Below, in pieces: positions 17,828 to 47,407 of a DNA stretch of 57,715 nt. The position numbers and the translations under genes were made by a program. The notes under the pieces were generated by a model that saw nothing but the letters and a program-made list of their open reading frames with translations, was not told where the DNA came from and made no database searches. Every line of letters begins with the position of its first letter. Position 1 is the first letter of the stretch. Source of the DNA: Parcubacteria group bacterium (GTDB lineage Bacteria; Patescibacteriota; Patescibacteriia; Patescibacteriales; GWC2-42-12); contig JACPHD010000017.1 of NCBI GenBank assembly GCA_016188785.1, positions 1 to 57,715 of the forward strand, read 5' to 3'.

Positions 17828-18238
17828 ATGGACGCAAATAAAATTAAACAAAATAAGAAATTTAGGCGCAAAGGCCGGGTCAGGGCGAAAGTTAGCGGTA
17901 CGGCCGCTTGCCCAAGATTAAGTGTTTTTAGGTCTAACCGGGGAATTTACGCCCAAATTATAAATGATGAAATCGGCCGGACACTAGCGGCGGTTGACGC
18001 TGGAGAAGTTAACCCCGTTAAATCCGGCTCCGCCGGTCCCGATAGTAATCGGGAATTTAACGGGGTTAAGGCCAAGAGTAAAAAAATTGCTATGAGTCTG
18101 GAACTGGGCAAAATAATCGCGGCTAAAGCCAGGGCTCAAGGCATTAGCCGGGTGGTGTTTGATCGCAACGGTTATAAATATCATGGCCGGGTCAAGGCTT
18201 TGGCCGAAGGCGCTCGCGCCCAAGGCTTAAAATTTTAA
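17828..18238 (+). CDS. rplR: 50S ribosomal protein L18 with an in-frame palindromic insertion
   Basis: PRLSVFRSN, VVFDRNGYKYHGRVKALAE. Confidence 0.98.
   Translation: MDANKIKQNKKFRRKGRVRAKVSGTAACPRLSVFRSNRGIYAQIINDEIGRTLAAVDAGEVNPVKSGSAGPDSNREFNGVKAKSKKIAMSLELGKIIAAKARAQGISRVVFDRNGYKYHGRVKALAEGARAQGLKF
18009..18069. mobile_element. CCCCG...CGGGG miniature element inside rplR, TTAA duplication
   Basis: TTAA|CCCCGTTAAAT...ATTTAACGGGG|TTAA; 53+4 = 57 nt, in frame. Confidence 0.8.
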
Positions 18239-18296
18239 ATTACTAATTTGAGCAAATAATCCGCCGGCTGGCGGAGCGAATTTAGCGAATAATAAT

Positions 18297-18938
18297 ATGG
18301 ATGAAGAAAAAAAACAGCCAGAAATAGCGGTTAGTCAGGCGGCGCCGGTTCAAACCGCGCCTGAATCTAGAATGGCTCAGCGCGGCGGCGACAGAAAAAG
18401 AAATTTTAAAGGTAAAAGAGGGTCGCCGCGCTCGGGTTATGGCATGCCGGAGGAATTTGAGCAAAAAATGATTGATATTGCCCGCGTTACCCGCGTTATG
18501 GCCGGCGGCAAAAGAATGCGCTTTAGAGCCTGCGTGGCTATCGGCAATAAGAAAGGCCGGGTGGCGATCGGTTTGGCTAAAGGCGCCGACGTTACTTTAG
18601 CCGTGACTAAAGCCGTTAATAAAGCTAAAAAGAATTTCATTGACATACCGATTGTCAATGAAACCATTCCCCACGAAGTTTATCAAAAATTAGGCGCGGC
18701 CAGAATTTTATTCAGGCCGGCTAAAAAGGGCCGGGGCATTATCGCCGGCGGCGCGGTTAGAATTCTTTTGGAATTAAGCGGCATAAAAAATGTTACCAGT
18801 AAAATATTAGGCACCGGCAATAAAGTCAACAATGTAAAGTGCGCCATTGCAGCGCTGAAGAGTTTGAAAAGAGTGGAAATAAATAAAAAATCCCAAATCC
18901 CAAATCCCAAAGCCCAAACAAATTCAAAATCCGAATAA
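18297..18938 (+). CDS. rpsE: 30S ribosomal protein S5
   Basis: RVTRVMAGGKRMRF, GIIAGG; C-terminus encoded by AAATCCC heptamers. Confidence 0.98.
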   Translation: MDEEKKQPEIAVSQAAPVQTAPESRMAQRGGDRKRNFKGKRGSPRSGYGMPEEFEQKMIDIARVTRVMAGGKRMRFRACVAIGNKKGRVAIGLAKGADVTLAVTKAVNKAKKNFIDIPIVNETIPHEVYQKLGAARILFRPAKKGRGIIAGGAVRILLELSGIKNVTSKILGTGNKVNNVKCAIAALKSLKRVEINKKSQIPNPKAQTNSKSE

Positions 18939-18995
18939 CCAAAATACAAAATTTATTTGTGATTTGGAAATTGTAATTTGGAAATTAATAAACTT

Positions 18996-19439
18996 ATGTC
19001 TTTATCACTTCATACCATCAGGCCGGCTCGCGGTTCGGCCCGGAATAAAAAAAGAATTGGCCGAGGCAACGCCTCGGGCCATGGTTCTTATAGCACTCGC
19101 GGACAAAAGGGCCAAAGATCAAGAAGCGGCGGCCGGAATAAATTAAAAAGATTAGGTTTTAAACAAATTTTGGCCGCGACGCCGAAGAACAGAGGTTTCA
19201 AATCAGACAAGCCTAAAAATCAAGTGGTTAATCTTAAAGATCTAAATGATAATTTTTCGGCTGGCGCTAAAATTAACGCTGCCGGCTTAGTAAAGGCCGG
19301 TTTAGTTAGAAAGGCCCAGGAGAAAATAAAAATTTTAGGCCAAGGCGAGCTAACTTTAAAAAATTTGGAATTTGCAGGAGTTGGTTTAAGCGCCAACGCT
19401 AAAGCGCAGATTGAAAAAATGCACGGAAAGATTTTATAA
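18996..19439 (+). CDS. rplO: 50S ribosomal protein L15
   Basis: RIGRGNASGHG, GQKGQRSRSG, KILGQGEL; ATG 18996 chosen. Confidence 0.97.
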   Translation: MSLSLHTIRPARGSARNKKRIGRGNASGHGSYSTRGQKGQRSRSGGRNKLKRLGFKQILAATPKNRGFKSDKPKNQVVNLKDLNDNFSAGAKINAAGLVKAGLVRKAQEKIKILGQGELTLKNLEFAGVGLSANAKAQIEKMHGKIL

Positions 19440-19446
19440 TTATTAT

Positions 19447-19605
19447 TGTCATTGCGAGCGACTGTCTTGCTTCGTCATTCCTGCAGCCTTTAGTCCTCGC
19501 GAAAGCGGGGAAGGAATCCAGAAAAACCACGTTGGTCAATATCCCCATCGTCCTGGATTCCCGCCTGCGCGGGAATGACGAAAGAAAATTGCTCCTCGCA
19601 ATGAC
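19447..19605. repeat. nested REP-like elements
   Basis: outer GTCATTGCGAG...CTCGCAATGAC encloses TTCGTCATTCC...GGAATGACGAA (19471-19582). Confidence 0.9.
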
Positions 19606-19614
19606 TGATAAATT

Positions 19615-20886
19615 ATGTATGAAAAGTTGATACAAATTTGGAAAGCGCGCGATTTACGCAATAGCCTGTTTTTTGTTTTGGCGATGCTGGTTATTTTTCG
19701 CTTAGCCGCCCATATTCCGGTTCCCGGAGTTGATACCCAGGCGCTTAAAGATTTTTTTGCTTCTAATCAGATTTTAGGACTGATGAATATCTTCGCCGGC
19801 GGCGGTATGACTAATTTTTCCATTGTCATGATGGGTGTTGGCCCATATATTACTTCATCAATTATTTTTCAGCTTCTGGCCATGATTATACCGCAATTGG
19901 AAGAGCTGAATAAAGAAGAAGCCGGCCGGCAAAAAGTAAATATGTGGACGCGCTGGCTGACCGTGCCTTTGGCCGTGCTGGAAGCTTATGGCATGATTAC
20001 TTTATTGCGCCGGTCCTCGCATTTAATTTTGGGCGACATCAGCGCTTTTAATTTATTAGCCATGATTATAACCGTGGCCGCCGGTACGGTTTTTTTAATG
20101 TGGCTGGGCGAATTAATCACGGAAAAAAAAGTCGGCAATGGAATTTCCCTGCTGATTTTCGCCGGCATCGTTTCCGGACTATTGCAAACCGCTCAGCAGG
20201 TAATCGTTACCTTTGATCCGTCAAAATTATATGTGATTTTAGGCTTTTTAGCTATTGCCATTATAACCATCGTTGGCGTGGTGGTAGTTAATGAGGGCCA
20301 GCGCAATGTGCCGGTGCAGTACGCCAGGCAAATCAGGGGCAACCGGATGTTCGGCGGCGCTTCAACGCATCTGCCTTTGCGCGTTAATATGGCCGGAGTT
20401 ATTCCGATTATTTTTGCCATTTCCGTGGTAATTTTTCCGCCCATGATCGCGCAATTTTTCATCCACGCGCGCACGGTTTTTATCGCTAATGCGGCGCAGT
20501 GGACTATTGATTTTTTTCAAAACCAATTAGTCTACGCGATTTTATATTTCTTACTGGTTTTTGCTTTTACTTTCTTTTATACCGAGGTTATTTTTCATCC
20601 CACGCAAATCGCGGAAAATTTGCAAAAACAGGGCGGTTTTATTCCCGGCATTAGGCCGGGCCGCCATACCAGCGAATATTTAGCCAACACTACTCATAAA
20701 ATTATATTTGTCGGCGCTTTATTTTTAGGCCTGATCGCTATTTTGCCTTTGGTTTTAAGGTATTTCACCGGCATTCAGTCGCTGTCTATCGGCGGCACGT
20801 CTTTACTGATCGTGGTTTCGGTGGTGATTGAGACCGTTAAGCAGATTGAATCGCAGTTGACTATGCGGGAGTATGAGGGCATGTAA
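19615..20886 (+). CDS. secY: preprotein translocase SecY
   Basis: GVGPYITSSII, WLGELITE, GFIPGIRPG, GGTSLLIVV. Confidence 0.99.
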   Translation: MYEKLIQIWKARDLRNSLFFVLAMLVIFRLAAHIPVPGVDTQALKDFFASNQILGLMNIFAGGGMTNFSIVMMGVGPYITSSIIFQLLAMIIPQLEELNKEEAGRQKVNMWTRWLTVPLAVLEAYGMITLLRRSSHLILGDISAFNLLAMIITVAAGTVFLMWLGELITEKKVGNGISLLIFAGIVSGLLQTAQQVIVTFDPSKLYVILGFLAIAIITIVGVVVVNEGQRNVPVQYARQIRGNRMFGGASTHLPLRVNMAGVIPIIFAISVVIFPPMIAQFFIHARTVFIANAAQWTIDFFQNQLVYAILYFLLVFAFTFFYTEVIFHPTQIAENLQKQGGFIPGIRPGRHTSEYLANTTHKIIFVGALFLGLIAILPLVLRYFTGIQSLSIGGTSLLIVVSVVIETVKQIESQLTMREYEGM

Positions 20887-20962
20887 ATTTTTTTAAAAAT
20901 AAAGTCTAAAACAAAATATTCGCGTTTAGCCTCTATATTCAGCGTTAAATTAACATTTATCT

Positions 20963-22666
20963 ATGTCCAACCATCAATCCATTAAAGATTTATTCAGTAA
21001 CGACTCCGGGCAGTCGCTTAATAGCGACAGCGCGGCCGCCGAGTTTAAGGCTAAGGAAAAACAGCTAAAAATAAAAGAAATAGAGCGGTTAACCAAGCAG
21101 GCCGCCGCGGCCGCCGGTTTGTCTTACATTGATTTAGCCGGTTTGCCGATCAGCCCGGAGGCTTTAGTTTTAATTGATGAGATGCAAGCTAAAACTCTTA
21201 AAACTTTGTGTTTTTATTATGATGGCAAAAATATCAGTCTGGCTAGCCTGGAACCGCAGGGCCAGGCGGCTAAAGCTTTAGCCGAACAGCTGTCGGCCAA
21301 ATATTTTTCTGAAGTTAATGTTTATTTAATTACCGAGAATAGTTTTGAGTATGGCCTGGCAATGTATAAAACCATACCTAAAATAAGGGAAACCATCAGA
21401 GGCGTTAAAGTCACAGAGGAAGAATTAAATAAATATGGGGAAAAATTTTCCAGTTTTAAGGATTTGCAGGCCGAAATAAATCAGGCGCAAATTACCGAAA
21501 TCGTCACCATGATTATGGCCGCGGCTGTAAAAGCAAATTCCTCGGATATTCATATTGAAACCGAAGAAAATTTAATAAAAGTCAGGTTTAGGATTGACGG
21601 CGTTTTACATGATGCGGCCAGCCTGGATAAATCTTCCTGGGATAAGATAATTTCCCGCATGAAACTTTTAGCCAAGGTAAAAATTAACGTAACTGATAAG
21701 CCGCAGGACGGCCGACTGTCAATCTATATGAAAGACGACCGGGTGGACATCCGAGCCTCATTTTTACCCACTAATTTCGGCGAAAGCGTGGTCATGCGCT
21801 TGTTGCGTTCCAGCGCGGTTGGCTTGGAATTTAGCGATTTAGGCATTCGCGGCCGGGCCTTTGAGCAGTTAAAGCGCGAGGTGGAACGACCGAACGGCAT
21901 GATTATTACTACCGGTCCGACCGGCTCGGGTAAAACTACCACTTTGTACGCCATGTTAAAAAAACTTAATAATCCGGAGACCAAGATTATTACCATTGAA
22001 GACCCGATTGAATATCAGCTGTCAGGCGTTAATCAATCGCAAACCAGCAAGAATTACACTTTTGCCCAAGGCTTGCGCTCAATCGTGCGCCAGGATCCGG
22101 ATATCGTCATGGTGGGAGAAATTCGCGATTTGGAAACCGCGGAAATCGCCATTCAGGCGGCGCTGACCGGGCATTTGGTTTTATCCACGATTCATACCAA
22201 CGACGCGGCCGGCACGGTCTCCAGATTTTTGTCTATGGGCACCAAACCGTATTTATTGGCACCGGCTCTAAACGCCATGATCGGGCAAAGACTGGTTAGA
22301 AAAGTTTGCGAACAATGCAAAAAAGAAATAAAACTTGACGACGAAACCATGAAGCGCGTTAGAGGTCTACTGGAAGAACTGCGGCCGGAAGATAGAGAAA
22401 AAATTGATTTTAATAATTTAAAATTTTTAGCGGGCGGCGGCTGCGACGCCTGCCAGGGCATCGGCTATAAAGGCCGCATCGGCATTTATGAAGTTATGAC
22501 CATGAACCAGGAAATTGAAAAATTAATTTTAGCCGGCCAGGCTTCGGAATACAGCCTGCGCGACAATGCCAAAAAAAATGGCGTTATTACCATGGTGCAG
22601 GATGGCCTGTTAAAAGCGCTGGACGGCATCACCTCGGTTGCAGAGGTATTTAGAGTAGCGGAATAA
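20963..22666 (+). CDS. GspE/PulE/PilB family type IV pilus assembly ATPase
   Basis: SDIHIE, Walker A GPTGSGKTT, RQDPD..VGEIRD, STIHTND, tetracysteine motif. Confidence 0.95.
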   Translation: MSNHQSIKDLFSNDSGQSLNSDSAAAEFKAKEKQLKIKEIERLTKQAAAAAGLSYIDLAGLPISPEALVLIDEMQAKTLKTLCFYYDGKNISLASLEPQGQAAKALAEQLSAKYFSEVNVYLITENSFEYGLAMYKTIPKIRETIRGVKVTEEELNKYGEKFSSFKDLQAEINQAQITEIVTMIMAAAVKANSSDIHIETEENLIKVRFRIDGVLHDAASLDKSSWDKIISRMKLLAKVKINVTDKPQDGRLSIYMKDDRVDIRASFLPTNFGESVVMRLLRSSAVGLEFSDLGIRGRAFEQLKREVERPNGMIITTGPTGSGKTTTLYAMLKKLNNPETKIITIEDPIEYQLSGVNQSQTSKNYTFAQGLRSIVRQDPDIVMVGEIRDLETAEIAIQAALTGHLVLSTIHTNDAAGTVSRFLSMGTKPYLLAPALNAMIGQRLVRKVCEQCKKEIKLDDETMKRVRGLLEELRPEDREKIDFNNLKFLAGGGCDACQGIGYKGRIGIYEVMTMNQEIEKLILAGQASEYSLRDNAKKNGVITMVQDGLLKALDGITSVAEVFRVAE

Positions 22667-22761
22667 TAATTTATGAAGTTGAGACAGGATGGCCGCATAA
22701 AGAAATACTTTGAGACTAAGCAAGAATGTTGATTATGAAGATTATAATGACGATTAAATAT

Positions 22762-23256
22762 ATGACATATATTAAAAAGACAGTCTGGACTGTAGTTGGA
22801 ATCATTTTATTAGTTTGTGTCATTTATTTAGGTCTGGGCGTAGTGGATTTTATTAGTTTTAAAACTATAGCTAAATCCGCCGGTGGTATGCCGTGGCAAG
22901 ATGGGGGTAAAATAACTAAGGTTAGGAAACCATGTGTTTTGGATACACCGGAAATCGACCCAATCGCTTGCTCTTATTGCCCGTTAGTCACTAAGGACTG
23001 GGGCTCGGCCTGCGCGGGTTTTATTGAACTGGATACTCAATCGCAAATGGGGACTATAAATATCGACGCGCCTATCGGGTTTGTCTATGGCGGCGGTGGG
23101 ACCATGCCTGCGGCTGGTATGTCATATATAGCCGGTGGAGTGTCCGGTGCCATTCCTTGGGTAATCGGCATACCCTCTAGCCCGGGGGCTAAAATTCAAA
23201 AGATTATTGATTGGTTTGATTATGGCATAGCTTCTTTTAAGAATAAAATTAAATAA
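22762..23256 (+). CDS. membrane-anchored Cys/Gly-rich hypothetical protein
   Basis: N-terminal TM helix and four downstream Cys; start uncertain (22726-22762). Confidence 0.65.
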   Translation: MTYIKKTVWTVVGIILLVCVIYLGLGVVDFISFKTIAKSAGGMPWQDGGKITKVRKPCVLDTPEIDPIACSYCPLVTKDWGSACAGFIELDTQSQMGTINIDAPIGFVYGGGGTMPAAGMSYIAGGVSGAIPWVIGIPSSPGAKIQKIIDWFDYGIASFKNKIK

Positions 23257-23259
23257 GCA

Positions 23260-24084
23260 ATGAATTTATTAGAACAAACAAAAAAATTATGTAAATTATA
23301 TAATATAGTTCCTGCCCGTTCTCGCGGGCAGAATTTTTTAATTAAGGAAAAAATTTATGATGATATTATGGCCGCGGCTGATTTAAAACCGGCTGATATA
23401 GTTTTAGAAGTTGGTCCGGGTTTGGGATTTTTAACCGCCAAACTGGCGGCTCAAGTGAAAAAAGTTATTGCCGTGGAGCTTGATGATAAGCTGGTCAAGA
23501 CATTGGGAGCCGGATTAAAAGCGCGGGGAATAAATAATGTAGAGTTGATAAACGAAGATATTCTAAAAATTTCCAATCCCAATAACCAAACAAAAAACTA
23601 TAAAATTGTCGCGAATTTACCGTACAACATAACTTCTATATTTTTAAGAAAATTTCTGGCTGAAGCGGAAAATAAGCCGGAACTGATGGCGCTGATGCTA
23701 CAAAAAGAAGTGGCCGAGCGCATATGCGCCAAAACTGGAAGCATGAGCTTACTGGCCGTGTCGGTACAGTTTTACGCCAAGCCGGAGATTGTGCAAATAG
23801 TAAAAAAAGAAAATTTTTGGCCAGAGCCGGAAGTGGATTCGGCGATTATTAAGTTAGAAGTTAGAAGTAAGAAGTTAGAAGTAAATGAAAGAGAATTTTT
23901 CCGGCTGGTTAAATTTGGCTTTAGCGCTAAAAGAAAAATGTTAAAAAATAATTTAGCCGCTGGCTTAAAAATCAGTCAAGAAACAGCGAAAAATAAAATA
24001 ATTAGCGCCGGTTTCAACCAGAAAATCAGGGCGCAAGAGCTATCGGTTGATGATTGGCTGAAGTTATTTAGTGTTTTTAATTAA
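23260..24084 (+). CDS. rsmA: 16S rRNA adenine dimethyltransferase
   Basis: GQNFL, LEVGPGLG, VANLPYNI, QKEVAERI. Confidence 0.98.
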   Translation: MNLLEQTKKLCKLYNIVPARSRGQNFLIKEKIYDDIMAAADLKPADIVLEVGPGLGFLTAKLAAQVKKVIAVELDDKLVKTLGAGLKARGINNVELINEDILKISNPNNQTKNYKIVANLPYNITSIFLRKFLAEAENKPELMALMLQKEVAERICAKTGSMSLLAVSVQFYAKPEIVQIVKKENFWPEPEVDSAIIKLEVRSKKLEVNEREFFRLVKFGFSAKRKMLKNNLAAGLKISQETAKNKIISAGFNQKIRAQELSVDDWLKLFSVFN

Positions 24085-24105
24085 ATGTGTTATAATGAAA
24101 ACACA

Positions 24106-24188
24106 TGAACCCCGTTAGAAATTCGTTAAATTAAAGCGAGGTTTATAATAAAATAATATATGACAAATCAAATTTCTAACGGGGTGAA
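24106..24188. mobile_element. CCCCG...CGGGG element in a start codon, TGAA duplication
   Basis: A-TGAA|CCCCGTTAGAAATT...AATTTCTAACGGGG|TGAA; 75-bp core. Confidence 0.82.
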
Positions 24189-24525
24189 AGAAATAAAAAC
24201 TATCAATAAAAATTCGCTGGCGAAAATAATGGCTTTAATTTACGGTTTGGCCGGGTTTTTTGTAGCTTTGGCTGTGGCTATATCAACCATGGCCAATATT
24301 GTCATGCAAAAAGATTTTTCCGGCTCTATTATTCTGGTAACTTTATTTAATTTAGGCGCCGGTCTGCTTTTAGGGGTTTTGTCCGCTCTGATTACGGCTT
24401 TAATCGGCTGGTTAGCCGGTTATATTATGGCCGGTATCTATAACTGGTTTGCGAAAAAAGCCGGAGGAGTGAAGATTGAGCTGGCGGATGTGGTTGAGAA
24501 ACAAAAACAAGAAATAAATAACTAA
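24160..24525 (+). CDS. small membrane protein (DUF3566-like)
   Basis: two to three TM helices, YNWFAKKAGGVKIEL C-terminus; first ~9 aa are element-derived. Confidence 0.7.
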   Translation: MTNQISNGVKEIKTINKNSLAKIMALIYGLAGFFVALAVAISTMANIVMQKDFSGSIILVTLFNLGAGLLLGVLSALITALIGWLAGYIMAGIYNWFAKKAGGVKIELADVVEKQKQEINN

Positions 24526-24539
24526 TAATTTTGAATTTT

Positions 24540-24842
24540 ATGCCGCTAATCAACGACAGTAAAGATTTATTATACATAATAATTTCTATTTCAGTTTTAG
24601 TTTTTACCATTTTTTTTTGCTGGGCGCTTTATTATCTGGCTAGGATTTTACAGCAAATGTTCCGGATAATTAAAGAAACGCGCGAACGACTTAATAAATT
24701 TGATGAATTAGTAAAAATGATAAAAGAAAAAATTGAACATAGCGCTTCTTATTTGCTTTTAATCAGCGCCGGCGTAAAAAAATTGGTGGAGATTATGAAA
24801 GTCAGGACGGAAAAGAAGAAGATGGGCAAGAAAGCCGAGTAG
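24540..24842 (+). CDS. single-TM coiled-coil hypothetical protein
   Basis: hydrophobic N-terminal helix followed by heptad repeats. Confidence 0.7.
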   Translation: MPLINDSKDLLYIIISISVLVFTIFFCWALYYLARILQQMFRIIKETRERLNKFDELVKMIKEKIEHSASYLLLISAGVKKLVEIMKVRTEKKKMGKKAE

Positions 24843-25043
24843 TTAAAATGTGATTGCCGTTGCCATTCAAAATTAAATTAAACTCATGAAATTAATCAGA
24901 GAAGAGAAATCTCTGATAGTTTTAAGTTTGAGTTTAATATAATTGTTGATGGTCAAAAGACTATGAAAATAGTTAAACTGATAAATAAAAGCATTCAATG
25001 AGGAGTTTTTGTTTTAGCTAATTTGTAGTATAATGTGGGTAGT

Positions 25044-25967
25044 ATGAGCTTATTTTCCATTATTATTATCGTGGCCGGTTTATGCCTGTTTGAAGTTATT
25101 TCCAGCATAGACAACGCGATTATCAATGCCGAAGTGCTGTCCACCATGCAGGCCAGGGCGCGGCGCTGGTTTTTAATTTGGGGCATGGTTATCGCGGTTT
25201 TTTTAATCAGGGGGCTCTTGCCCTGGCTGATTGTCTGGCTGGCCACGCCCGGTCTTGGACCGCTAGAAGCCATTACCGCCACTTTTTCCTCGGATCCTAA
25301 AGTGATTGAGGCCGTGGAAAAATCAGCGCCTATGCTATTAATCGGCGGCGGCGTATTTTTAATATTTTTGTTTTTTCATTGGCTGTTTTTAGAATCAAAA
25401 AATTTCGGCTTGCGCGGCGAAAAATTTTTTTATAAAAACGGGGTTTGGTTTTATTCGGTGGTATCAGTTATTTTAGCGGCTGTCGTTTGGCTGGCGCTAG
25501 GCAAAGATCCGCTCATGGCTTTTGGCGCCGTGGTGGGCTCAACCGCTTTTTTTATTACTCACGGCTTTAAGCAGAATGCCGAACAAAGAGAAAAAGATTT
25601 GTCCAAAAGCCATTTGTCAGATATGAGCAAAATACTTTATTTAGAAGTGATTGACGCGACTTTTTCCATTGACGGGGTTTTAGGCGCTTTTGCTTTTACT
25701 TTATCCGTGCCTTTAATCTTAATCGGCAACGGCATCGGCGCTTTAGTGGTGCGCCAAGTAACCATCGGCAATATTGACCGGATAAAGAAATATCTTTATT
25801 TAAAAAACGGCGCCATGTATTCTATTTTATTTCTAGGTGTTATAATGCTATTGGATAGTTTTGGTTGGCATGTGCCAAGCTGGCTGTCGCCGGCGGTAAC
25901 TTTTGCCGTAGTAATTTATTTTTTTCAAAAGTCTAGATGGGAAAATAATAAATTATTGGTCAAATAA
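25044..25967 (+). CDS. DUF475 (TerC-like) integral membrane protein
   Basis: SSIDNAIINA and LEVIDATFSIDGVLGAFA motifs; TATAAT at 25029-25034 implies a near-leaderless transcript. Confidence 0.88.
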   Translation: MSLFSIIIIVAGLCLFEVISSIDNAIINAEVLSTMQARARRWFLIWGMVIAVFLIRGLLPWLIVWLATPGLGPLEAITATFSSDPKVIEAVEKSAPMLLIGGGVFLIFLFFHWLFLESKNFGLRGEKFFYKNGVWFYSVVSVILAAVVWLALGKDPLMAFGAVVGSTAFFITHGFKQNAEQREKDLSKSHLSDMSKILYLEVIDATFSIDGVLGAFAFTLSVPLILIGNGIGALVVRQVTIGNIDRIKKYLYLKNGAMYSILFLGVIMLLDSFGWHVPSWLSPAVTFAVVIYFFQKSRWENNKLLVK

Positions 25968-25990
25968 ATAATGTTGGCTCTAGAGGCGCA

Positions 25991-26023
25991 TTTCTGGATT
26001 GCGGGTCAAGCCCGCAATGACAA
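25991..26023. repeat. solo right half of a REP-like element
   Basis: TTTCTGGATTGCGGGTCAAGCCCGCAATGACAA, identical to 10843-10875. Confidence 0.88.
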
Positions 26024-26054
26024 TGAAAGTAAAATAATTTATAATAAAAACATT

Positions 26055-26678
26055 ATGGGTATTACAAATTTGCCTAAACCAGGCATTAATTTTAAAGCTA
26101 CGTTAGGTCCGGGCAGTTTTCAAAGAAAATTAAGCTCCGCCACCAGGTATGGCGGCTTAAAAAATTTAAGAGACAATCAAAAAGCGATCGTTGATGTGGT
26201 AAAAAAATACCAAGGAGTAATTAGAATCAAAGGCGGGCTTTCCCGGTTACAGAAAAGAGACGCTTGGCTAAAACTTAAAAAGAGTACTCCGCTAACATAC
26301 GTCGACAAATATGAAGCAAAAAGAATAATTGAGCATTTAGGCCGCGGTACTGCCGCTAGGGCAAAAGGAGCGGTGGTTGATGGAAAAACTATTAAGGCCA
26401 GCGACGGCAAAAGTTATTTAACCGAAAAACAAATTGCCAGAAATTTAAGAGCTAATATGCAAAGAGATGAACTTATAGATAGAGATAAACGTAAAACTGT
26501 TTTTTCCGGCAATACAGTTTCAAAAAAATCAGTTAGCATCTCTAGGGTTCAAAAAGATAAAAATGATCTGGGCCTGAGCCGAATTGGCTTAAATGCCGGA
26601 CCGGTCGGATTTGCCGGCGGACAGCCGAGCAAAATCGCGCCGGTTGTTGAAAAACCTATAATAAAATTAGCCGCTTAG
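26055..26678 (+). CDS. highly basic hypothetical protein
   Basis: Lys/Arg-rich ORF; ATG 26055 preferred because the upstream extension reads through the REP. Confidence 0.65.
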   Translation: MGITNLPKPGINFKATLGPGSFQRKLSSATRYGGLKNLRDNQKAIVDVVKKYQGVIRIKGGLSRLQKRDAWLKLKKSTPLTYVDKYEAKRIIEHLGRGTAARAKGAVVDGKTIKASDGKSYLTEKQIARNLRANMQRDELIDRDKRKTVFSGNTVSKKSVSISRVQKDKNDLGLSRIGLNAGPVGFAGGQPSKIAPVVEKPIIKLAA

Positions 26679-26687
26679 CTGTCTTCT

Positions 26688-26847
26688 TTGTCATTCCGGC
26701 CCGAGCTGTCTAAAAATTGTCATTTCGAGCGTTAGCGAGAAATCGCTTAAAGGTGAAAGTTGCTAATTTAAGGGATTTCTCCCTGCGGTCGAAATGACAA
26801 GAATATCATTTTGACTTTTTAGACAGTCGCCTGCGCGGGAATGACAA
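26688..26847. repeat. triple-nested palindromic elements
   Basis: GTCATTCC...GGAATGAC contains CTGTCTAAAAA...TTTTTAGACAG (26706-26826), which contains TTGTCATTTCGA...TCGAAATGACAA (26717-26800). Confidence 0.88.
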
Positions 26848-26881
26848 GAAAAAGCTAATTGTCAGTAATGACAATTTAATT

Positions 26882-27544: not shown

Positions 27545-27546
27545 TT

Positions 27547-27613
27547 TTGTCATTCCGGCCTTGAGCTGCCCCGCAAAATGCGGGGTGGATTGCGGGTCAA
27601 GCCCGCAATGACA
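27547..27613. repeat. shortened REP-like element with an internal CCCCGCA...TGCGGGG hairpin
   Basis: TTGTCATTCCGGCCTTGAGC...GGATTGCGGGTCAAGCCCGCAATGACA. Confidence 0.85.
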
Positions 27614-27620
27614 TATATAA

Positions 27621-28394: not shown

Positions 28395-28399
28395 TTTTT

Positions 28400-31299: not shown

Positions 31300-31319
31300 A
31301 AAACTAACTAATCAATTAT

Positions 31320-34938: not shown

Positions 34939-34942
34939 ATTT

Positions 34943-35817: not shown

Positions 35818-35859
35818 GGAAATTAGCGCTTAGAGCGTAAATATAATATAATTATTTTA

Positions 35860-35958: not shown

Positions 35959-35985
35959 ATATTTTTGAAATTAGTTTGTTCCAGT

Positions 35986-36054
35986 TGCCGACGATTCAAT
36001 CTCCGCTCCCAGTCGAGTGGAGGTGGTATTAAGGGTGTTTGGAGGGGAATAAAA
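35986..36054 (+). repeat. direct repeat, copy 2
   Basis: duplicate of 34873-34938. Confidence 0.92.
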
Positions 36055-36078
36055 ACTTTGTTTATAAATATTATAAAA

Positions 36079-39000: not shown

Positions 39001-41769
39001 AGTGGTAGTCCTTGGAATCTTTATGCGCTCAAATCAGATGGTACAGTTTGGCATTCAGACAGCCCCTTGTTTAATTTATGGACACAGATATCCGGATTAG
39101 ATAGTATTGTTAGTATTGGCGGGGGTAGCGAGGGTTTACTTGCTTTGAAATCAGATGGAACAGCAATGTATTATTTTAATAATAATGGTTTAACTGGGTT
39201 AATTGGCGGTTTAGATAGTATAGTTGCAATACATGGAGCTGATATTGAATCGTCTGCGTTGCGTTTATCCGCATTAAAATCAGATGGAACAGTTTGGGAA
39301 TGGAAAAAAAGAATTAGTATTTATGAAAATTTAAATCAGATTGACGGATTAAATAATATTATAGATATTGGTGGCGGTGGTAATTATAGATTAGCGTTAA
39401 AATCCGACGGTTCTCTTTTGGGTTGGGGGGCAAACGATATTGGTCAATTAGGCAATGGAGCAACTTGCGGTCATGGCGGTTGTATAAGTGGTGTTGTACA
39501 AACTCTACCTCCCCTTATTTACACCACAACCTCCCTCCCCGCCAACGGCTCCCTTAATAGAACTGGATTTTTAGGCGATGACCCTAATGTTACCTACACG
39601 CCTAATCTTGACTACACAGGCGCTGACTCGTTTCAGTTCAAAGTAAGCAATGGCGTTCAAGAAAGTGCGCCGGGCACGGTGAGTATTACGGTGAACAATG
39701 TTAACCGCGCCCCGGTCCTTGACCCCATCAGCAACAAAACCGTTAATGAAGGTTCTAATTTATCTTTTACTATTTCCGCCATTGATCCTGACGTTGGCGA
39801 TACCTTAACGTATTCCGCCAGCAATACTCCGGCTGGCGCGAGTTTTAACCCGGCCACTAGAACATTTTCCTGGACGCCCACGTTTACTCAAGCCGGTTCA
39901 TACCCATGGGTGAATTTTTCAGTGAGCGACGGCAATTTAACAGACAGCGAAGCCATTACGATAACGGTGAACAATGTTAACCGCGCTCCTACGGCCAACG
40001 CGCAATCGGTTTCTGTGCTTAAAAATAGCAGTAATAATTTGATTACTTTAGCCGGCACCGATCCGGACGGCGACCCGCTAACGTGTCCGGCGTCAGGCCT
40101 AACAAATCCAGCGCACGGCACCTTAGGCGGAGCCGGTTGCGCTAGAACCTATACGCCCGCCAACGGCTACACGGGCGGCGATTCCTTTACCTTTAAGGTT
40201 AATGATGGCACGGTTGACAGTCTGCCAGCAACCGTGTCTATAACAGTAGTATCGCCAGCGCAAAGAATATTAAATATAACTGGCGCTGGTTCTGGCAATG
40301 GCGCAATCACCAGCTCTCCGGCCGGCATAAATTGCGTTACCCAAAATGGAGTTTTGAGCGGAACCTGCTCGGTTGGATTTGATATAAATACAGCCGTTAC
40401 TTTAACCGACGCCGCCGCGGCTGATTCAATCTTTGCCGGCTGGAGCGGCGATCCTGATTGTTCTCCTGATGGAAATGTTACGATGAACGTGGCAAAAACT
40501 TGCACCGCCACGTTTAACCTAACCACCGGCAGTATTCAAGTTAAGGCTACTTTAGATGGCAATCCCTGGAGCGGCGATTTGAATTATACGTTAACCGGTA
40601 GAGAAAACATCAACGGTAGTACGGTTCCAAAAATTTTTAGCGATAAACTCACCGGCCTTTACACTTTAAACTATTTAAGCCGCGGTCCGGTCAACGCCAC
40701 GTTAGTTTCAATTACTCCGGCTGACTCCCAATGGTTAAGCAACGGCGCCCTGATTGAATTTACCATGAATTTTGTCTCTAATTATAGCCTCACTATTACT
40801 AAATCCGGCGCCGGCTCGGGTACGGTTACTAGCGCGCCGGCCGGCATAGATTGCGGCGCAACTTGTTCTGCTTCCTACGTCAATGGCACGGCTGTCACTC
40901 TTACAGCCTCTCCGGCAGTTGGCTCCGCCTTTACCGGCTGGTCCGGCGCTGGTTGCTCCGGCGTTGGCGCTTGCAATATAACCATGGACGCGGTTAAAAC
41001 CGTAGACGCCGCCTTTGCTGCCTCGCCCGCGGCGGTTGGCTTGTCAGCGCCTAACTGGAATTTTTTCAATGCCGCTAAACTCGGAGCTCTTAAAGCCTTT
41101 TTGAAATGGCAGTTTAGCGACCCCAACCCTGGCGCTAGCGAAAGCGCCTATCAGGTGATAGTTGATACTGACAATGATCCGCTCACTCCGCCCTTAATTG
41201 ACACTGGCAAATGTTTAGGTTATAACAACCCTAGCGTTAAATGCCGCATCAATCTGGGCGTGGATAGCTACCAGGTCCATGACCAAGCTGATTTAAGTTA
41301 TAACACTAAATATTATTGGTGGGTTAAAGTCTGGAATAATTATGATTTAACTTCGGCTTTAAAGCAATATGATACAGAACCTGATACGGATAATGACGAC
41401 GGCGATCCGTTTACTTTCACTACCTATAAAAGTGAATTTCCTAATGCTGATTTTATCTGGTTTCCGGTCAAGCCCAGCCGCGGCGAAGCCGTGCAGCTTA
41501 CTGATAAGTCAAAATATTACCCGAACGCCGCGCCCGAGCCGGCCTTTGATTGCGATGAGGCTCATTGCGCTTGGCTCTGGACCGGGCCGGCCGACGCTGT
41601 TATTGACAATGCCAGAGCTAAAAATCCTAAAATTACTTTTAGCTCCTCGGGCCAAATGAGCGTGACTTTAAAAGTTACCGATAAAAATAACGGCTATTAT
41701 ACTAACCTAACTAAAATTTTGGATCTAAACCGGAAATTGCCTAGCTGGAAGGAAGTTAAGCCGAAATAA
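36079..41769 (+). CDS. very large secreted surface protein (beta-propeller, PKD-like, RCC1, Big_9/cadherin-like, InlB-B-like repeats)
   Basis: signal peptide; ALKSDGTVW RCC1 repeats; YTP..YTG.DSF.FKV.DG Ig repeats; GSGTVTSAPAGIDCG repeats; ATG 36079 chosen. Confidence 0.88.
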   Translation: MKKQMNIKKMWHRDFVFTNSKWLLLLVLIIFGISFYDHALAAFEGQNWHTEKLEFDESIPGGGVAVVWEKTEDGNSGGVGESFDISEHVAQGNDGGIYIIESSPRVITPTTNSKKYVLTKRKQSDGDIIWRIDLLSRDGKYIDDVVDFEGISTGSPGDSLYLIGRLHNYAPDGSFISAITLIQKRNLDGSLAWETIESNIDLRTLSVLSGSVYVGGYDKISLNGIVRSLYGSTGKMRWEHSIPAAQGRIAMVADIMTRVPGEVSVIGYKGDLIFGLNRMFFQRLAVEDENAYRVFLSKDDYPFVSTVGNQPDIALSGDSTGSPHTIFAYRYNEATFGVQNKLGILNAQGNITELRNIDFNWRDLSVGVYTTDVLLSGLEYKQYDGHYYWRVDKYNANLDGVWQRMFEVGGFGGGAYDGHLISGTAYVVGGARPTASFSLSAPSPTSQVTNPGWTRDYSVGITRTGGFNDAVNLSSAVALNGADLNITWPDGSVISAGESGPKTMRVQALAATELKRGMNYDITITASGGGVTKTQEVDFYINQRPQARFRAIGSTNINPGQSVSFRDGDNTLTPSNDPDTFAPGNTLQVFMADFNNDGVVDKCFAIVAVTGCSSNPADDPRINNWSFQYNNSGIYIAQYLVFDDLFDDGPPPLSWAEALKSAAFALPIQVIVGAAGTAPSAVIDIQNDSGRPISQALPGQMFYAYAGGSNDPDGTINLVSFCADTTPELSGAPKNCDGSVMPWIMPPLGWDAPDLARNWLAVAKKLRGKISAPGTYAIYMIVADNTGMLSNVAMDTITIINLPPPIANNQSVTTDKNTAKAVMLSGSGNGWVDMLNTSDNNIHSLGIRADGTVWGWGYNSFEQAGDCVGVGCYSPNQINGEPGFNNIIKVTASYRSSMALKSDGTVWVWGRDGDMTGNPIAKRIVGVSNAIDIAGGGADEKLYILTQSGVIYSYQYSANSLSLLPLLSNVIKIYSGSPWNLYALKSDGTVWHSDSPLFNLWTQISGLDSIVSIGGGSEGLLALKSDGTAMYYFNNNGLTGLIGGLDSIVAIHGADIESSALRLSALKSDGTVWEWKKRISIYENLNQIDGLNNIIDIGGGGNYRLALKSDGSLLGWGANDIGQLGNGATCGHGGCISGVVQTLPPLIYTTTSLPANGSLNRTGFLGDDPNVTYTPNLDYTGADSFQFKVSNGVQESAPGTVSITVNNVNRAPVLDPISNKTVNEGSNLSFTISAIDPDVGDTLTYSASNTPAGASFNPATRTFSWTPTFTQAGSYPWVNFSVSDGNLTDSEAITITVNNVNRAPTANAQSVSVLKNSSNNLITLAGTDPDGDPLTCPASGLTNPAHGTLGGAGCARTYTPANGYTGGDSFTFKVNDGTVDSLPATVSITVVSPAQRILNITGAGSGNGAITSSPAGINCVTQNGVLSGTCSVGFDINTAVTLTDAAAADSIFAGWSGDPDCSPDGNVTMNVAKTCTATFNLTTGSIQVKATLDGNPWSGDLNYTLTGRENINGSTVPKIFSDKLTGLYTLNYLSRGPVNATLVSITPADSQWLSNGALIEFTMNFVSNYSLTITKSGAGSGTVTSAPAGIDCGATCSASYVNGTAVTLTASPAVGSAFTGWSGAGCSGVGACNITMDAVKTVDAAFAASPAAVGLSAPNWNFFNAAKLGALKAFLKWQFSDPNPGASESAYQVIVDTDNDPLTPPLIDTGKCLGYNNPSVKCRINLGVDSYQVHDQADLSYNTKYYWWVKVWNNYDLTSALKQYDTEPDTDNDDGDPFTFTTYKSEFPNADFIWFPVKPSRGEAVQLTDKSKYYPNAAPEPAFDCDEAHCAWLWTGPADAVIDNARAKNPKITFSSSGQMSVTLKVTDKNNGYYTNLTKILDLNRKLPSWKEVKPK

Positions 41770-41785
41770 GAAATATTATCAAAAA

Positions 41786-41904
41786 CGTCATTGCGAGCGA
41801 CTTTCTCTTTTTGTCATTCCCGCGCATCCGCCAACTGGCGGAGGGAATCCATGTTGGGGCGGTAATAACTTGTTTCTGGATTGCGGGTCGGAGCCCGCAA
41901 TGAC
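41786..41904. repeat. composite REP-like element
   Basis: CGTCATTGCGAGCGAC remnant followed by GTCATTCCCGCG[TCCGCCAACTGGCGGA]GGGAATCC...GGATTGCGGGTCGGAGCCCGCAATGACA. Confidence 0.88.
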
Positions 41905-41951
41905 AGAAAAATTATTTAGCGTGGCTGGCGCCGCGCTGATTTAAAATCAGC

Positions 41952-42584
41952 ATGAATAAAAAAATAAACCCCGCGCCTTCCCGCGGGATATTAGACATCA
42001 CAGAAAAGATTGTTTTAAACCATTTGTCTATAAGCAGTCTCCGCGGCGCTTTAGGAAGGCGCGGGGTAAATAATTATGGTTTTACTTTAATTGAATTATT
42101 AGTCAGTATTTTTATAGTCGCCTTGCTGGGCGGTTTTTTCATGGTTAATTATCATGATACTAATAAACGTTCGGAACTGGGCATGGTAAAACAGAAGCTG
42201 GCCTCGGATATTAGATTGGCGCAGAATTATAGCTTAGGCGCAAAAACTTATGATGGTCTTAATACTCCCGGCGGGGGCTGGGGAGTACATTTTGATTTGG
42301 CCGACCCGACTCATTATATAATTTTCGCGGATCAAGAGGATCCTAATGGCAATCAAGTTTATGAAGATACCGAAAAAATAGAGACTAAAACTTTGCCGGT
42401 CGGCATAACCCTGGATTCTTTAAGTCCGGCCAATACGGTTGATATTGTTTTTTTTCCGCCTGATCCGGTAACTTATGTTAATAGTTCGGCCGTAACTAAC
42501 GCGCAAATTACTTTGCGGGAAAATATTAATAATTCAACCGCGGTTATTACGGTCAATTCTTTCGGGTTAATTGATACGGATTAA
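41952..42584 (+). CDS. type IV minor pilin / pseudopilin (FimT/GspH-like)
   Basis: prepilin site G|FTLIE followed by a hydrophobic helix; leader lengthened by an insertion. Confidence 0.88.
   Translation: MNKKINPAPSRGILDITEKIVLNHLSISSLRGALGRRGVNNYGFTLIELLVSIFIVALLGGFFMVNYHDTNKRSELGMVKQKLASDIRLAQNYSLGAKTYDGLNTPGGGWGVHFDLADPTHYIIFADQEDPNGNQVYEDTEKIETKTLPVGITLDSLSPANTVDIVFFPPDPVTYVNSSAVTNAQITLRENINNSTAVITVNSFGLIDTD
41965..42070. mobile_element. CCCCG...CGGGG element in frame in the prepilin leader, TAAA duplication
   Basis: TAAA|CCCCGCGCCTTCC...GGAAGGCGCGGGG|TAAA; 98+4 = 102 nt. Confidence 0.82.
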
Positions 42585-42589
42585 AATAT

Positions 42590-42748
42590 AAATTTCTAAA
42601 TTACTAATTAACCTAATTTCTAAAATTACAAATAACAAATTCCAAACAATATCAAAATTCTAATTTACCAATATCTAAAATAAATATATCGTTTAGGCTT
42701 TGTTATTTTAAATTTGTTTGTGATTTGGCGTTTGTGATTTGGAATTTT
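42590..42748. repeat. long heptamer hairpin
   Basis: AAATTAC/AAATAAC/AAATTCC arm vs. GTGATTT/GGAATTT arm. Confidence 0.7.
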
Positions 42749-42752
42749 ATAA

Positions 42753-43265
42753 ATGAAATTTAAAGCAATAAAAAACAACTTAGGCATTAGCATTCTTGAA
42801 GTTATCGTGGCTATGACCATAATTACTCTGGGCCTGGTTGGCGTTTTATCGTTGGTAATTCAAAACGTTAAAGCGCAATATATTAATAAAAACGTTTTAA
42901 TCGCTTCGGATCTGGCCGGAGAAGGCTTGGAATTGATAAGAAATGTTAGGGATTTTAATTGGTTGACCCCGGGTAACACTTGGAAGCAAAATATTGTCGG
43001 TGATGGCACTTATACAATTGATTATGGCGGGTTAATTAGCATTAATATGGCCGTAAATTCCATAAATGATGCTGGCGCCAGATTGTATCTTAATAGCGAT
43101 GGTTTTTATGTTCATACCGCGACCGCGGACACGACTAATTTTTATCGCTTAATTACCGTGGTTGACAATGGCGATTATCTTGATGTTAAATGCACTATCC
43201 GCTGGCAAGATGGCGCACAGGAACATGATTATACGGCCCAAACTTATTTATACAATTGGCGGTAA
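42753..43265 (+). CDS. type IV minor pilin (PilV-like)
   Basis: G|ISILEV, LAGEGLELIRNVRD. Confidence 0.85.
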   Translation: MKFKAIKNNLGISILEVIVAMTIITLGLVGVLSLVIQNVKAQYINKNVLIASDLAGEGLELIRNVRDFNWLTPGNTWKQNIVGDGTYTIDYGGLISINMAVNSINDAGARLYLNSDGFYVHTATADTTNFYRLITVVDNGDYLDVKCTIRWQDGAQEHDYTAQTYLYNWR

Positions 43266-43270
43266 CCCTC

Positions 43271-43344
43271 AAATCTACAAATTTGCTACGAATAATACAA
43301 ATATAAATAATAATTTGTAATATTTGTAACTGATTTGTAGATTT
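43271..43344. repeat. TACAAAT/TACGAAT-type inverted repeat
   Basis: AAATCTACAAAT ... ATTTGTAGATTT terminal pairing with periodic internal units. Confidence 0.75.
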
Positions 43345-43359
43345 GTGGGGAAAATTATT

Positions 43360-43944
43360 ATGAATTTTTTAATAAAAATAAAAGATAATAAGGGTGTGAG
43401 CTTAATTGAGCTACTGGTGGCCGTTACGATTTTTACATTTTTAATTTTGTTGGCTGTTCAAATATTTAAAATGGTGGTTGACGGCCAGCGGAGCGCCATC
43501 GCCGCGCAAAATACGCAGGAAAATATGAGATATGCTCTGGAAAAGATAAGTAAAGAAATCAGAATGGCGCGGATCAGTAATCAGGAGTGCGAGTCAATTT
43601 TTTTCCCGCCGGCTACGGCCAGCTATAAAGTCTATAATACAGCCGCCGGCGCCAGCCAGTTGTATTTTAAAAATAAAGATGGCGTTTGCTTGGCTTATTA
43701 TCTATCAAATAATCGTCTTAAAATAATAGCCGGCATTGGCGCTGGCGCTAGGTCCGATTTTATTACTCCGGCGAAAGTTGAAGTTAGTAATTTAAAATTT
43801 TTCGTAGTTGATGATATTATCGGCGCTTTTCACTCTAAACAGCCGTATGTTACCATGGCGATGGAGGTTAAAGCGATCGGGCCGGTTCTGCATGAGCAGA
43901 AAATGAAAATTCAAATGACGGTTTCGTCAAGATATTATGAGTAA
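43360..43944 (+). CDS. type IV minor pilin (PilW-like)
   Basis: G|VSLIELLV, ALEKISKEIRMA. Confidence 0.85.
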   Translation: MNFLIKIKDNKGVSLIELLVAVTIFTFLILLAVQIFKMVVDGQRSAIAAQNTQENMRYALEKISKEIRMARISNQECESIFFPPATASYKVYNTAAGASQLYFKNKDGVCLAYYLSNNRLKIIAGIGAGARSDFITPAKVEVSNLKFFVVDDIIGAFHSKQPYVTMAMEVKAIGPVLHEQKMKIQMTVSSRYYE

Positions 43945-44347
43945 ATTTAATGCGAATGCCGCGAATAATATGCGAATGCCGCGAATAAAAAAAGAAACAG
44001 GCGTGATATTATTATTAACTTTATTTATTTTATCCGGCATCTTAATTATTACTTTGGCCGCGGCTGATTTGGTTTTAGCTGGTCTAAAAATGAATCGTTT
44101 AACCGGTTATTCAAATCTGGCTTTTTTCGCGTCTGAAGCCGGCTTGGAGCGGGTTTTATGGGAAGCCAGAAAAAATAATTATGTCTTGCCAAATATTGAT
44201 ACGGCTAATATTTTTAGTTTAGGCGATCTTGGCAATGGTAGTAGCTATCAGGTAGATTATGCAACTTCTTCGCCTAATGTCACTTTTAAATCAATCGGCT
44301 CATACCGCGGAGTTAAAAGATCGGTTGAAGCCACTTATCAGCCGTAG
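43937..44347 (+). CDS. PilX-like minor pilin
   Basis: G|VILLLTL without E5, AFFASEAGLE, SIGSYRGVKRSVE. Confidence 0.8.
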   Translation: MSKFNANAANNMRMPRIKKETGVILLLTLFILSGILIITLAAADLVLAGLKMNRLTGYSNLAFFASEAGLERVLWEARKNNYVLPNIDTANIFSLGDLGNGSSYQVDYATSSPNVTFKSIGSYRGVKRSVEATYQP

Positions 44348-44350
44348 TAA

Positions 44351-46525
<2,175 letters not shown>

Positions 46526-46526
46526 C

Positions 46527-46591
46527 CGTCATTAAATAATTTCTGGATTCCTTCCCCGCTTTCGCGAGGACTAAAGGCCGCAGGAATGACG
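46527..46591. repeat. REP-like element
   Basis: 46540-46591 is the reverse complement of 19473-19524 with one mismatch. Confidence 0.88.
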
Positions 46592-46599
46592 AGGAGTAT

Positions 46600-46893
46600 A
46601 TGCAATTATCCAAGAACGAAATACAACATATTGCCAAACTGGCCAGGCTGGAACTTACGGATGTTGAGCTGGAAAAATACGGCGCGCAACTATCCGCGGT
46701 TTTAAATTATATTGACCAGCTTAAGGAAGTTGAGGTTCAAGGCGTGGAACCGACCGCGCAAGTTACCGGGCTGGAAAATGTTTTACGCGAAGATGTGGTA
46801 AGGGGTTGGGACAAGGCCGAAATTGAGGAAGCTTTGAATGGCGCGCCGGAACGGGAAGGCCGATTTATTAAAGTGAAGCGGGTAATAGAATAA
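46600..46893 (+). CDS. gatC: Asp/Glu-tRNA amidotransferase subunit C
   Basis: HIAKLARL, VLREDV, FIKVKRV. Confidence 0.96.
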   Translation: MQLSKNEIQHIAKLARLELTDVELEKYGAQLSAVLNYIDQLKEVEVQGVEPTAQVTGLENVLREDVVRGWDKAEIEEALNGAPEREGRFIKVKRVIE

Positions 46894-46902
46894 AAATATT
46901 TA

Positions 46903-46977
46903 CCCCGTTAGAAATTCATCAAACTAAAACGGGGCGTATAATAAAATATATTATGGCAAATCAAATTTCTAACGGGG
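46903..46977. mobile_element. CCCCG...CGGGG element supplying a start codon
   Basis: 75-bp core homologous to 24110-24184; flanks TTTA / TGAA are not an exact duplication. Confidence 0.8.
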
Positions 46978-47318
46978 TGAAGATAATCAATCAAGAAATT
47001 ACCATTAACGAATTGAAAATTATGGCTGAAAAAATGTTCGGTAATTTAGTCAAAGCCGTGGTTGATATTGAACGCGGTATAATGGCGGTTGACGCTGAAT
47101 TGCACGCTGATGAAGAAGCAGGTTTAATTAAAAACGGTTCGGAGCAGAAAGATTTGTGGGGAATTAATTTGTACCCGGCACTTAAGACCGATGATTTTAT
47201 TGAATTTGATTCAATGATCAATTTAAGGCCGCGGCAAGGCAACTTGACGCGCGGCGTGGAAGATGAAAAAATTCAGGAGAAAATCAGGCTGATAGTGAAT
47301 AAGTTAATAAAAAAATAA
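46953..47318 (+). CDS. DUF5674-like protein
   Basis: LVKAVVDI, ELHADEE, DLWGINLYP, FDSMINLRP. Confidence 0.78.
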   Translation: MANQISNGVKIINQEITINELKIMAEKMFGNLVKAVVDIERGIMAVDAELHADEEAGLIKNGSEQKDLWGINLYPALKTDDFIEFDSMINLRPRQGNLTRGVEDEKIQEKIRLIVNKLIKK

Positions 47319-47320
47319 AA

Positions 47321-47407
47321 TGAACCCCGTTAGAAGTTACAATTTTAGCGGGAAAGAGTGAGTTAATTTTGATTGCAAATTATTATGCAAACTTCTAACG
47401 GGGTGAA
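47321..47407. mobile_element. CCCCG...CGGGG element in a start codon, TGAA duplication
   Basis: A-TGAA|CCCCGTTAGAAGTT...AACTTCTAACGGGG|TGAA; 79-bp core. Confidence 0.82.

Follow-up and report, generated by a model that had tools for sequence, protein, structure and literature searches.

Five hairpin-ended repeats in a Patescibacteria contig and a small GIY-YIG nuclease as their probable partner

How can a repeat break into one gene after another, often at the start codon, and still leave a readable gene behind? The question is raised by a stretch of 57,715 nucleotides (contig JACPHD010000017.1 of assembly GCA_016188785.1, from a Parcubacteria group bacterium of the Patescibacteriota), hereafter the window, in which five short repeats end in inverted arms of the form CCCCG..CGGGG. 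A preliminary description took them for MITEs (miniature inverted-repeat transposable elements) that duplicate a 4-bp target, are moved by a transposase encoded elsewhere and avoid harm by supplying an open frame and a start codon. In the analysis reported here the mobility and the bias toward start codons and reading frame hold up, but a transposase as partner is not supported. Instead, the five repeats are probably gene-less members of a hairpin-ended mobile family, the full-length form of which carries a stand-alone GIY-YIG nuclease that is likely driving its spread. This degree of confidence applies to the explanation as a whole, including the proposal that each member brings a segment with which the interrupted gene would be restored.

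The repeats, their empty alleles and their junctions

The window is contig C33 of the source genome (G000), which comprises 1.0 Mb in 45 contigs, belongs to an ultra-small bacterium and originates from groundwater metagenomes. Its gene content and the named relatives of the element agree with an assignment to Patescibacteria. This genome was scanned for CCCCG..CGGGG pairs at most 300 bp apart, which were then split by arm length. The 4-mers on the two flanks were equal in 31 of the 63 pairs with arms of at least 8 bp, compared with 2 of the 96 pairs with arms of 5-7 bp. A looser scan yielded 101 pairs, 31 of them duplicated, whereas three shuffled genomes yielded 2-6 pairs and zero duplication. 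Because long-armed pairs and the unshuffled genome are far richer in duplicated flanks, the window repeats are not due to chance, and the genome-wide pattern describes a real family. Curation of these pairs, in which four wrong pairings were removed and three nested copies added by hand, gave 62 copies, or 61 after removal of one contig-end duplicate. The pattern was found in 20 of 41 related genomes and in none with a reversed control. A scan of GTDB gave 56 loci, mainly chance, with a tRNA inside 7. Viral contigs gave 9 pattern loci, of which 4 are genuine short copies (two contigs and a duplicate pair), with zero long copies. One phage-like IMG/VR contig (L088:3005-3750) holds two copies, one at a start codon and the other in frame.

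All five window copies lie on the plus strand, and their cores, flanks, lengths and N-terminal peptides proved to be as first described. Two are intragenic. The 53-bp copy at 18013..18065 lies in frame within rplR (uL18; 17828..18238, Pfam PF00861) with TTAA on both sides, and the 98-bp copy at 41969..42066, with CCCCGCGCC arms and TAAA/TAAA flanks, interrupts in frame the leader of a prepilin-type gene (41952-42584), six codons past its start. These add 57 and 102 nt, that is 19 and 34 residues, so that the frame is kept as had been claimed. Other copies occupy the prepilin GFTLIE site, in the source genome (C2:11058 and C22:8931) and at L187, L249 and L250; there G-F-T is rebuilt by the right arm and TTTA, giving LTGFTLIE leaders.

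The remaining three are start cassettes, which rewrite N-termini. A gene for a small membrane protein has its native start ATGAA at 24105..24109, presently out of frame and followed by a 75-bp cassette (24110..24184, TGAA/TGAA) with TATAAT at 24144-24149, a replacement ATG at 24160 and a GTG formed from the right arm and flank. Another native ATGAA (47320..47324), also out of frame at present, precedes a 79-bp cassette (47325..47403, TGAA/TGAA) with its replacement ATG at 47385 (MQTSNGVN). The third, of 75 bp (46903..46977), lies at a DUF5674 gene and contains an inner CGGGG (46930-46934), TATAAT (46937-46942) and a replacement ATG at 46953. It is preceded at 46898..46902 by the A of the old ATG and the 4-mer TTTA (46899-46902), which is foreign to the site, and not a decayed duplicate, and splits the old A|TG. 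The suggestion that the cassettes bring a -10 box fared less well: TATAAT is present in two window copies, but it is not enriched across the family (6 of 20, compared with 3.5 in shuffled sequences, p=0.13). The copies at 41969, 46903 and 47325 are bridged by independent contigs of four samples from one study, one of which may itself be the source of G000; the listed pieces have no internal differences, no joint among the matches listed skips a copy, and no RNA data set is among them. The DUF5674 gene lies next to a 108-residue gene without a Pfam family (46953-47729), an arrangement present in 9 of 10 loci.

Relatives provided empty alleles for each of the five copies, which supports their description as non-autonomous mobile elements; the family is real and mobile. 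The rplR loop is short, without an element, in 27 of 30 loci, and carries the 53-bp element in G000, G020 and G015. In two other genera 53 of 53 and 52 of 53 bases are equal, with flanks CTCA/TAAA and TTCA/TAAA. Since the three genomes represent three separate clades and the neighbouring genes are 75-84% identical, this near-identity points to lateral spread to one site; exact matches in metagenomes numbered 0. The uL18 loop of other kin (L039, L040, L041) holds other short inserts (LPxxQAG; an 18-base CCCCG..GGGG remnant). At 24110 the empty allele ATGAAAGAAATA occurs in 6 of 14 relatives' loci, the intact element in none, and a decayed, different cassette in one. At 41969 all 10 same-genus loci are without the element, and L361, which agrees with the flanks, has TAAA just once. 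The empty allele ATGAAACTAATC of site 46903 is found in G016 and L072, behind the same upstream gene, and ATGAACATAG, that of site 47325, in L072; all 8 relatives' loci with the latter gene lack the element. The alleles ATGAAAGAAATA and ATGAACATAG match the earlier proposal that the duplicated targets at 24105 and 47320 are part of a native ATGAA. Outside the window, 8 of the 12 other proS loci read one ATGAAATA, and in G005 a variant copy occupies the site used in G000, flanked by TTTA/TGAA instead of TGAA/TGAA.

Comparison of the junctions shows that the 4-bp duplication is real in about half of the copies but is not a universal outcome (31 of 63 pairs in G000, 33 of 95 copies in eight relatives). 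In these relatives the commonest other combination was TTTA/TGAA (10), followed by the reverse, TTCA/TAAA (9), which is the same fixed foreign pair read on the other strand. From the duplications and the foreign pairs together it follows that each end keeps four bases of either the target or the donor. The target motif retains T at the first and A at the last position, but the TNAA first proposed is too narrow, since TGGA is also found, and TNNA is the better description. Insertions into tRNA genes replace CA or NNCA by TTCA..CAAG; among the RNA-carrying copies of G000, CAAG is present in 5 of 6 and CAAA in the sixth.

Start codons, reading frame and matched cargo

The predicted preference for start codons is borne out: 21 of the 61 copies in G000 sit on a start codon, compared with 19 of 2130 TNNA sites drawn at random from outside gene interiors (0.9%; 3.9% when the control is restricted to TGNA sites). 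A frame shift results from 19 of these 21 copies, and none of the 21 lacks a replacement ATG in frame. The expectation for length modulo three holds as well, with the frame kept by 9 of 10 interior copies. Among the 95 copies in the eight relatives, 28 are at starts, 17 near starts, and the interior ones are in frame without exception (7 of 7). When position is not conditioned on, a long open reading frame is entered in 71 of 81 orientations whose SNGV frame contains an ATG, and in 25 of 234 in which it does not. The A of the old ATG lies at -5 in 62 of 70 cassettes, and a G-rich core 12-45 bases upstream of the ATG is enriched (17 of 22, compared with 19%). ATG cassettes at neutral sites are rare, a rarity that purifying selection alone would not explain.

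The cargo of some copies is of classes absent from the preliminary description, namely homologous N-termini, or complete genes for tRNA or 5S. Six copies in G000 have an intact RNA gene inside, a tRNA in five (Glu, Met, two Val and Pro) and 5S in the sixth, and every one of them is bordered by the two halves of a broken gene of that kind. Over all loci examined, an automatic test found cognate halves around 25 of 31 arm-enclosed tRNAs; a different repeat family accounts for one of the 31. The outer acceptor stem of tRNA-Val(TAC) differs from the inner one at one pair with pairing preserved, and this compensated change suggests that the cargo is foreign. The tRNA-Val junction is identical in 5 genomes. 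In an epimerase gene the native MKILITGGTG has been displaced by the cargo MTILITGGAG, and in a second gene MKIIKI is repeated. Judged from these sequences, the majority of copies supply an extra start codon, an open frame or a complete tRNA gene, with which the interrupted gene would keep working. At L009 and L026, a tRNA cassette is surrounded by, or adjacent to, a second one identical to it, as though it had been re-inserted into its own cargo.

Copies also occur within copies. An identical composite, with a 29-bp copy inside the right arm and CTAA duplicated, lies at unrelated gene starts at C29:25153-25264 and C37:5339-5443 of G000, and at C5:12308-12467 a cassette is inserted into the ATG of another cassette. 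A second repeat family of this genome (CCCGCCCG..CGGGCGGG; C12:5389-5932, C36:50744-50816, C1:12523, C27:7077 and C29:20790) enters tRNA and 5S loops with no duplication and also brackets intact tRNA-Gly and tRNA-Thr within broken copies. In the window, heptamer-like repeats at 44660-44697 and 46044-46107 are translated in frame within a DNA ligase gene and have many look-alikes among metagenome contigs.

The nuclease between the arms

The expectation that a longer copy would supply a transposase was not borne out. A search for long copies, of 200-500 bp, gave long matches in 14 of 401 class genomes, and 11 of the 20 that were fetched (10 genomes) contain a GIY-YIG gene. No long copy was found to enclose a transposase: those of up to about 500 bp encode GIY-YIG, and longer ones were sought in G000 and the fetched loci only. 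Full-length copies measure 270-390 bp, about 280 being typical, and enclose one gene, for a predicted GIY-YIG nuclease of 83-90 residues. All 8 intact enclosed genes pass Pfam PF01541 (53-59 bits; cut-off 22.6), with Tyr, Gly, Arg, His and Glu invariant; in G031 a 304-bp copy surrounds a broken GIY-YIG gene. When the protein was used as a query, arms were found to enclose 20 of the best 30 order-level loci; among 80 loci from metagenomes and viruses, with one duplicate removed, 70 were enclosed, compared with 2 in a shifted-window control. The query was taken from enclosed genes, and the tie to the arms thus holds for this clade and not for all GIY-YIG genes. Plasmids gave no nuclease match, and viral contigs one locus, which is not arm-enclosed. 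The nearest solved structures by sequence are UPF0213 proteins (1zg2, 1ywl) and Slx1; a search of NCBIfam gave group I intron endonuclease matches only, all below cut-off. In the source genome, a small GIY-YIG gene (C36:49090-49490, L080) lies between a hairpin-broken 5' piece of tRNA-Lys and an intact tRNA-Lys, the layout of most non-enclosed nuclease matches in the order.

Full-length and short copies have the same junction types. The nuclease-bearing copies show duplication in 12 of 32 and 22 of 70 cases, and otherwise such pairs as TTTA/TGAA, TTCA/TAAA and CTTG/TGAA. The start codon is again involved. In G005, G007, G008 and G010, which belong to one genus, a start codon is interrupted at A|TGAA or A|TGGA by a copy of 303 bp, the nuclease gene of which has no ATG of its own: the host ATG and the left arm read MNPVRN.. 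into the nuclease, the last codons of which overlap the ATG that restarts the host gene. G000 has the empty allele of the invaded gene. Among the metagenome full-length copies, 10 of 70 are in frame with a host ATG. In other full-length copies the right arm forms the last nuclease codons and the TGAA/TAAA flank the stop. The outermost arm base covaries and suits the target, with TCCCG..CGGGA rebuilding a true ATG and GCCCG..CGGGC and CCCCG..CGGGG the 5' end of apparent tRNA-Pro genes, a label given by eye.

The two forms also tend to occur together. Enclosed nucleases are present in 8 of the 9 kin with at least 10 short copies, the exception being G000. Of 18 kin with a nuclease match 15 have short copies, compared with 5 of 20 without, although the kin are not independent. 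In G031, 12 of 19 cassettes match nuclease tails better than all shuffles, a likeness that marks the G031 cassettes as derived from those tails.

Proposed mechanism, rival explanations and known systems

We propose that the arms pair into a stem in single-stranded DNA, probably acquired by transformation; Patescibacteria have been reported to be competent and to retain recombination genes (PMC12455944). The Slx1-like nuclease, acting in cis or in trans, would cut about 4 bases outside the stem and open the target; Slx1 itself is described as a junction-cutting nuclease (PMC1564403). Host recombination and repair would then join the 4-base tails into the target, each end keeping the four bases of target or donor; depending on this choice the result would be a true duplication, a mixed pair or a full swap. 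The element is probably led to a matching gene by homology, either that of its cargo (tRNA, 5S or gene start) or that of its right arm, after which homing would spread the filled alleles. A full-length copy at a start codon may take the host ATG for its nuclease and give the host gene a new start; short cassettes would retain the new start alone. There is perhaps an even chance that this amounts to a new class of prokaryotic mobile element, in which a structure-specific GIY-YIG nuclease and host repair replace a transposase, the payload itself directs the element to the gene it matches, and copies without a gene write foreign versions over start codons, N-termini, tRNAs and 5S rRNA across Patescibacteria. 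At about 280 bp it would be among the smallest self-encoding ones.

Several observations weigh against this proposal. Short copies are present in the 5 of 20 kin without a nuclease match. In G000 itself no arm-enclosed nuclease was found, and a search with unpaired arms found no long copy of 260-8000 bp between CCCCG..CGGGG arms; the nearest nuclease match (44% identity) sits in a different, tRNA-Lys cassette. Neither the interiors of the five window copies nor the G000 cassettes as a group are significantly like nuclease DNA, so that the window copies are tied to the nuclease element by their ends, junctions and target type only. Joining of DNA is beyond a nuclease, so that the proposal has to invoke host enzymes. 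The possibility that start cassettes are cargo copied from local upstream DNA was rejected, these being no closer to their own upstream DNA than to that of other targets (p=0.31; permutation p 0.27-0.60), and homology guidance therefore leaves them unexplained. Six of the 31 arm-enclosed tRNAs failed the automatic cognate test, of which 4 look cognate but decayed by eye, and the CAAG flank outside G000 was imposed by the search patterns.

The repeats might instead be ordinary MITEs on which an unseen transposase, of the DDE (piggyBac/IS1380-like) or HUH type, acts in trans, with the nuclease a passenger and selection sparing the harmless insertions. The CCC..GGG ends, 4-base TNNA targets and carried donor 4-mers do resemble piggyBac, the nested insertions have a CTAA duplication, and G000 has one Y1_Tnp-type gene. 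We nevertheless consider this unlikely. PF13701 was found in 0 of 5 element-rich genomes and above cut-off in 5 of 401 phylum genomes, CCCCG ends are present at none of 14 fetched PF13701 loci, and G000 lacks any 260-8000 bp copy. Further, the fixed bases are limited to the terminal 4-5, and selection alone predicts many ATG or tRNA cassettes at neutral sites, where they are rare. No IS1380/piggyBac parent was found in the genomes and loci searched.

Classical homing on its own, in which the nuclease spreads a filled allele to the empty orthologue, new sites arise by rare accident and gene-less copies are inert, would account for the same element at the rplR site across clades, for the same-site proS copies in G000 and G005 and for the identical tRNA-Val junction in five genomes, and it would bring the family close to the fungal mORFs as these are described (PMC3630166). 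It is nonetheless quite improbable, given one cassette type in many unrelated genes (about 15 MEKxNxKISNGV-type starts in G031), the same nested composite at two unrelated G000 loci and 61 sites in 1 Mb. Least probable by far are host-selected RNA stems rather than mobile DNA, serving as processing stems around tRNA and 5S or as translation switches at starts: the arms do fold as stems and covary, and six copies enclose stable RNA genes, but the elements split resident genes, are patchy among kin (20 of 41 genomes) and are lacking at most orthologous sites, the empty alleles largely refuting the idea. Covariation of arms can also come from palindrome correction, and secondary regulatory effects of the stems are possible.

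If the nuclease does move the elements, DNA would spread to new sites by means of an 85-residue cutter without a transposase, and stand-alone Slx1-like proteins, hitherto predicted to be repair enzymes (PMC1564403), would gain a testable role. The ..SNGV N-termini, ..LTGFTLIE pilin leaders, ribosomal-protein inserts and nested tRNAs of Patescibacteria would then have one cause, with the warning that start sites and tRNA genes in these organisms can easily be mis-annotated or of foreign origin. A compact tool for targeted gene replacement could also come from cargo-guided, self-repairing insertion. A full-text literature search, which covers subscription journals poorly, found no description of the element, and the family is apparently unpublished; the GIY-YIG survey in the Ssn paper discussed below may include these proteins.

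Several known systems resemble the family in part. Correia and Rickettsia palindromic elements are short, gene-less and bounded by inverted ends, and are known for in-frame protein inserts and effects at gene starts. The short copies described here share with such in-frame palindromes and bacterial MITEs the small size, the lack of a gene and the terminal inverted repeats, but differ from DDE MITEs in having a nuclease gene as partner, duplication in about half of the copies and cargo matched to the target. piggyBac and IS1380 elements have CC.. ends, a 4-base T..A target and donor bases carried to new sites. Between the arms studied here, in contrast, no DDE gene was found, and the IS1380-type ends sampled are CCTAG, CCCAA, CCCAG and CCAGC. 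In the REPIN/RAYT system hairpin units are moved in trans as single strands by an HUH enzyme, which is akin to the mechanism proposed above; there, however, each REP is its own hairpin, and the Y1_Tnp gene of G000 lies outside CCCCG arms.

Two systems with nucleases come closer. The Ssn protein, with about 90 residues and GIY-YIG as its single domain, is linked to NTS and SRM hairpins, and its authors liken NTS-ssnA-NTS to an insertion sequence, the mobility of Ssn not having been demonstrated there (Chenal et al. 2025, PMC11893778). The enclosed proteins (83-90 aa, PF01541) are similarly single-domain and associated with hairpin repeats. As described in that paper, however, NTS is a self-contained CGTCATTCCC.. 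hairpin with 2% inside genes and SRM hairpins are of the CGTC type, whereas here the ends are single CCCGTTAGA-type arms, one on each side of the gene, and copies lie in genes. In the fungal mitochondrial mORFs (Allomyces atp6; Glomus atp6, atp9, cox2 and nad3), a LAGLIDADG nuclease, or a GIY-YIG one in atp9, inserts together with a foreign replacement of the displaced gene part and spreads by homing (PMC3630166). Here too an endonuclease gene comes with a replacement for what it displaces, a start in the full-length copies and N-termini or tRNAs in the gene-less ones. As far as that account of the mORFs extends, they replace C-termini and each has one target allele; the present family is bacterial and about 280 bp long, has terminal inverted arms and abundant gene-less copies, and replaces gene starts or whole tRNA and 5S genes at dozens of unrelated targets, with single subtypes recurring at one site.

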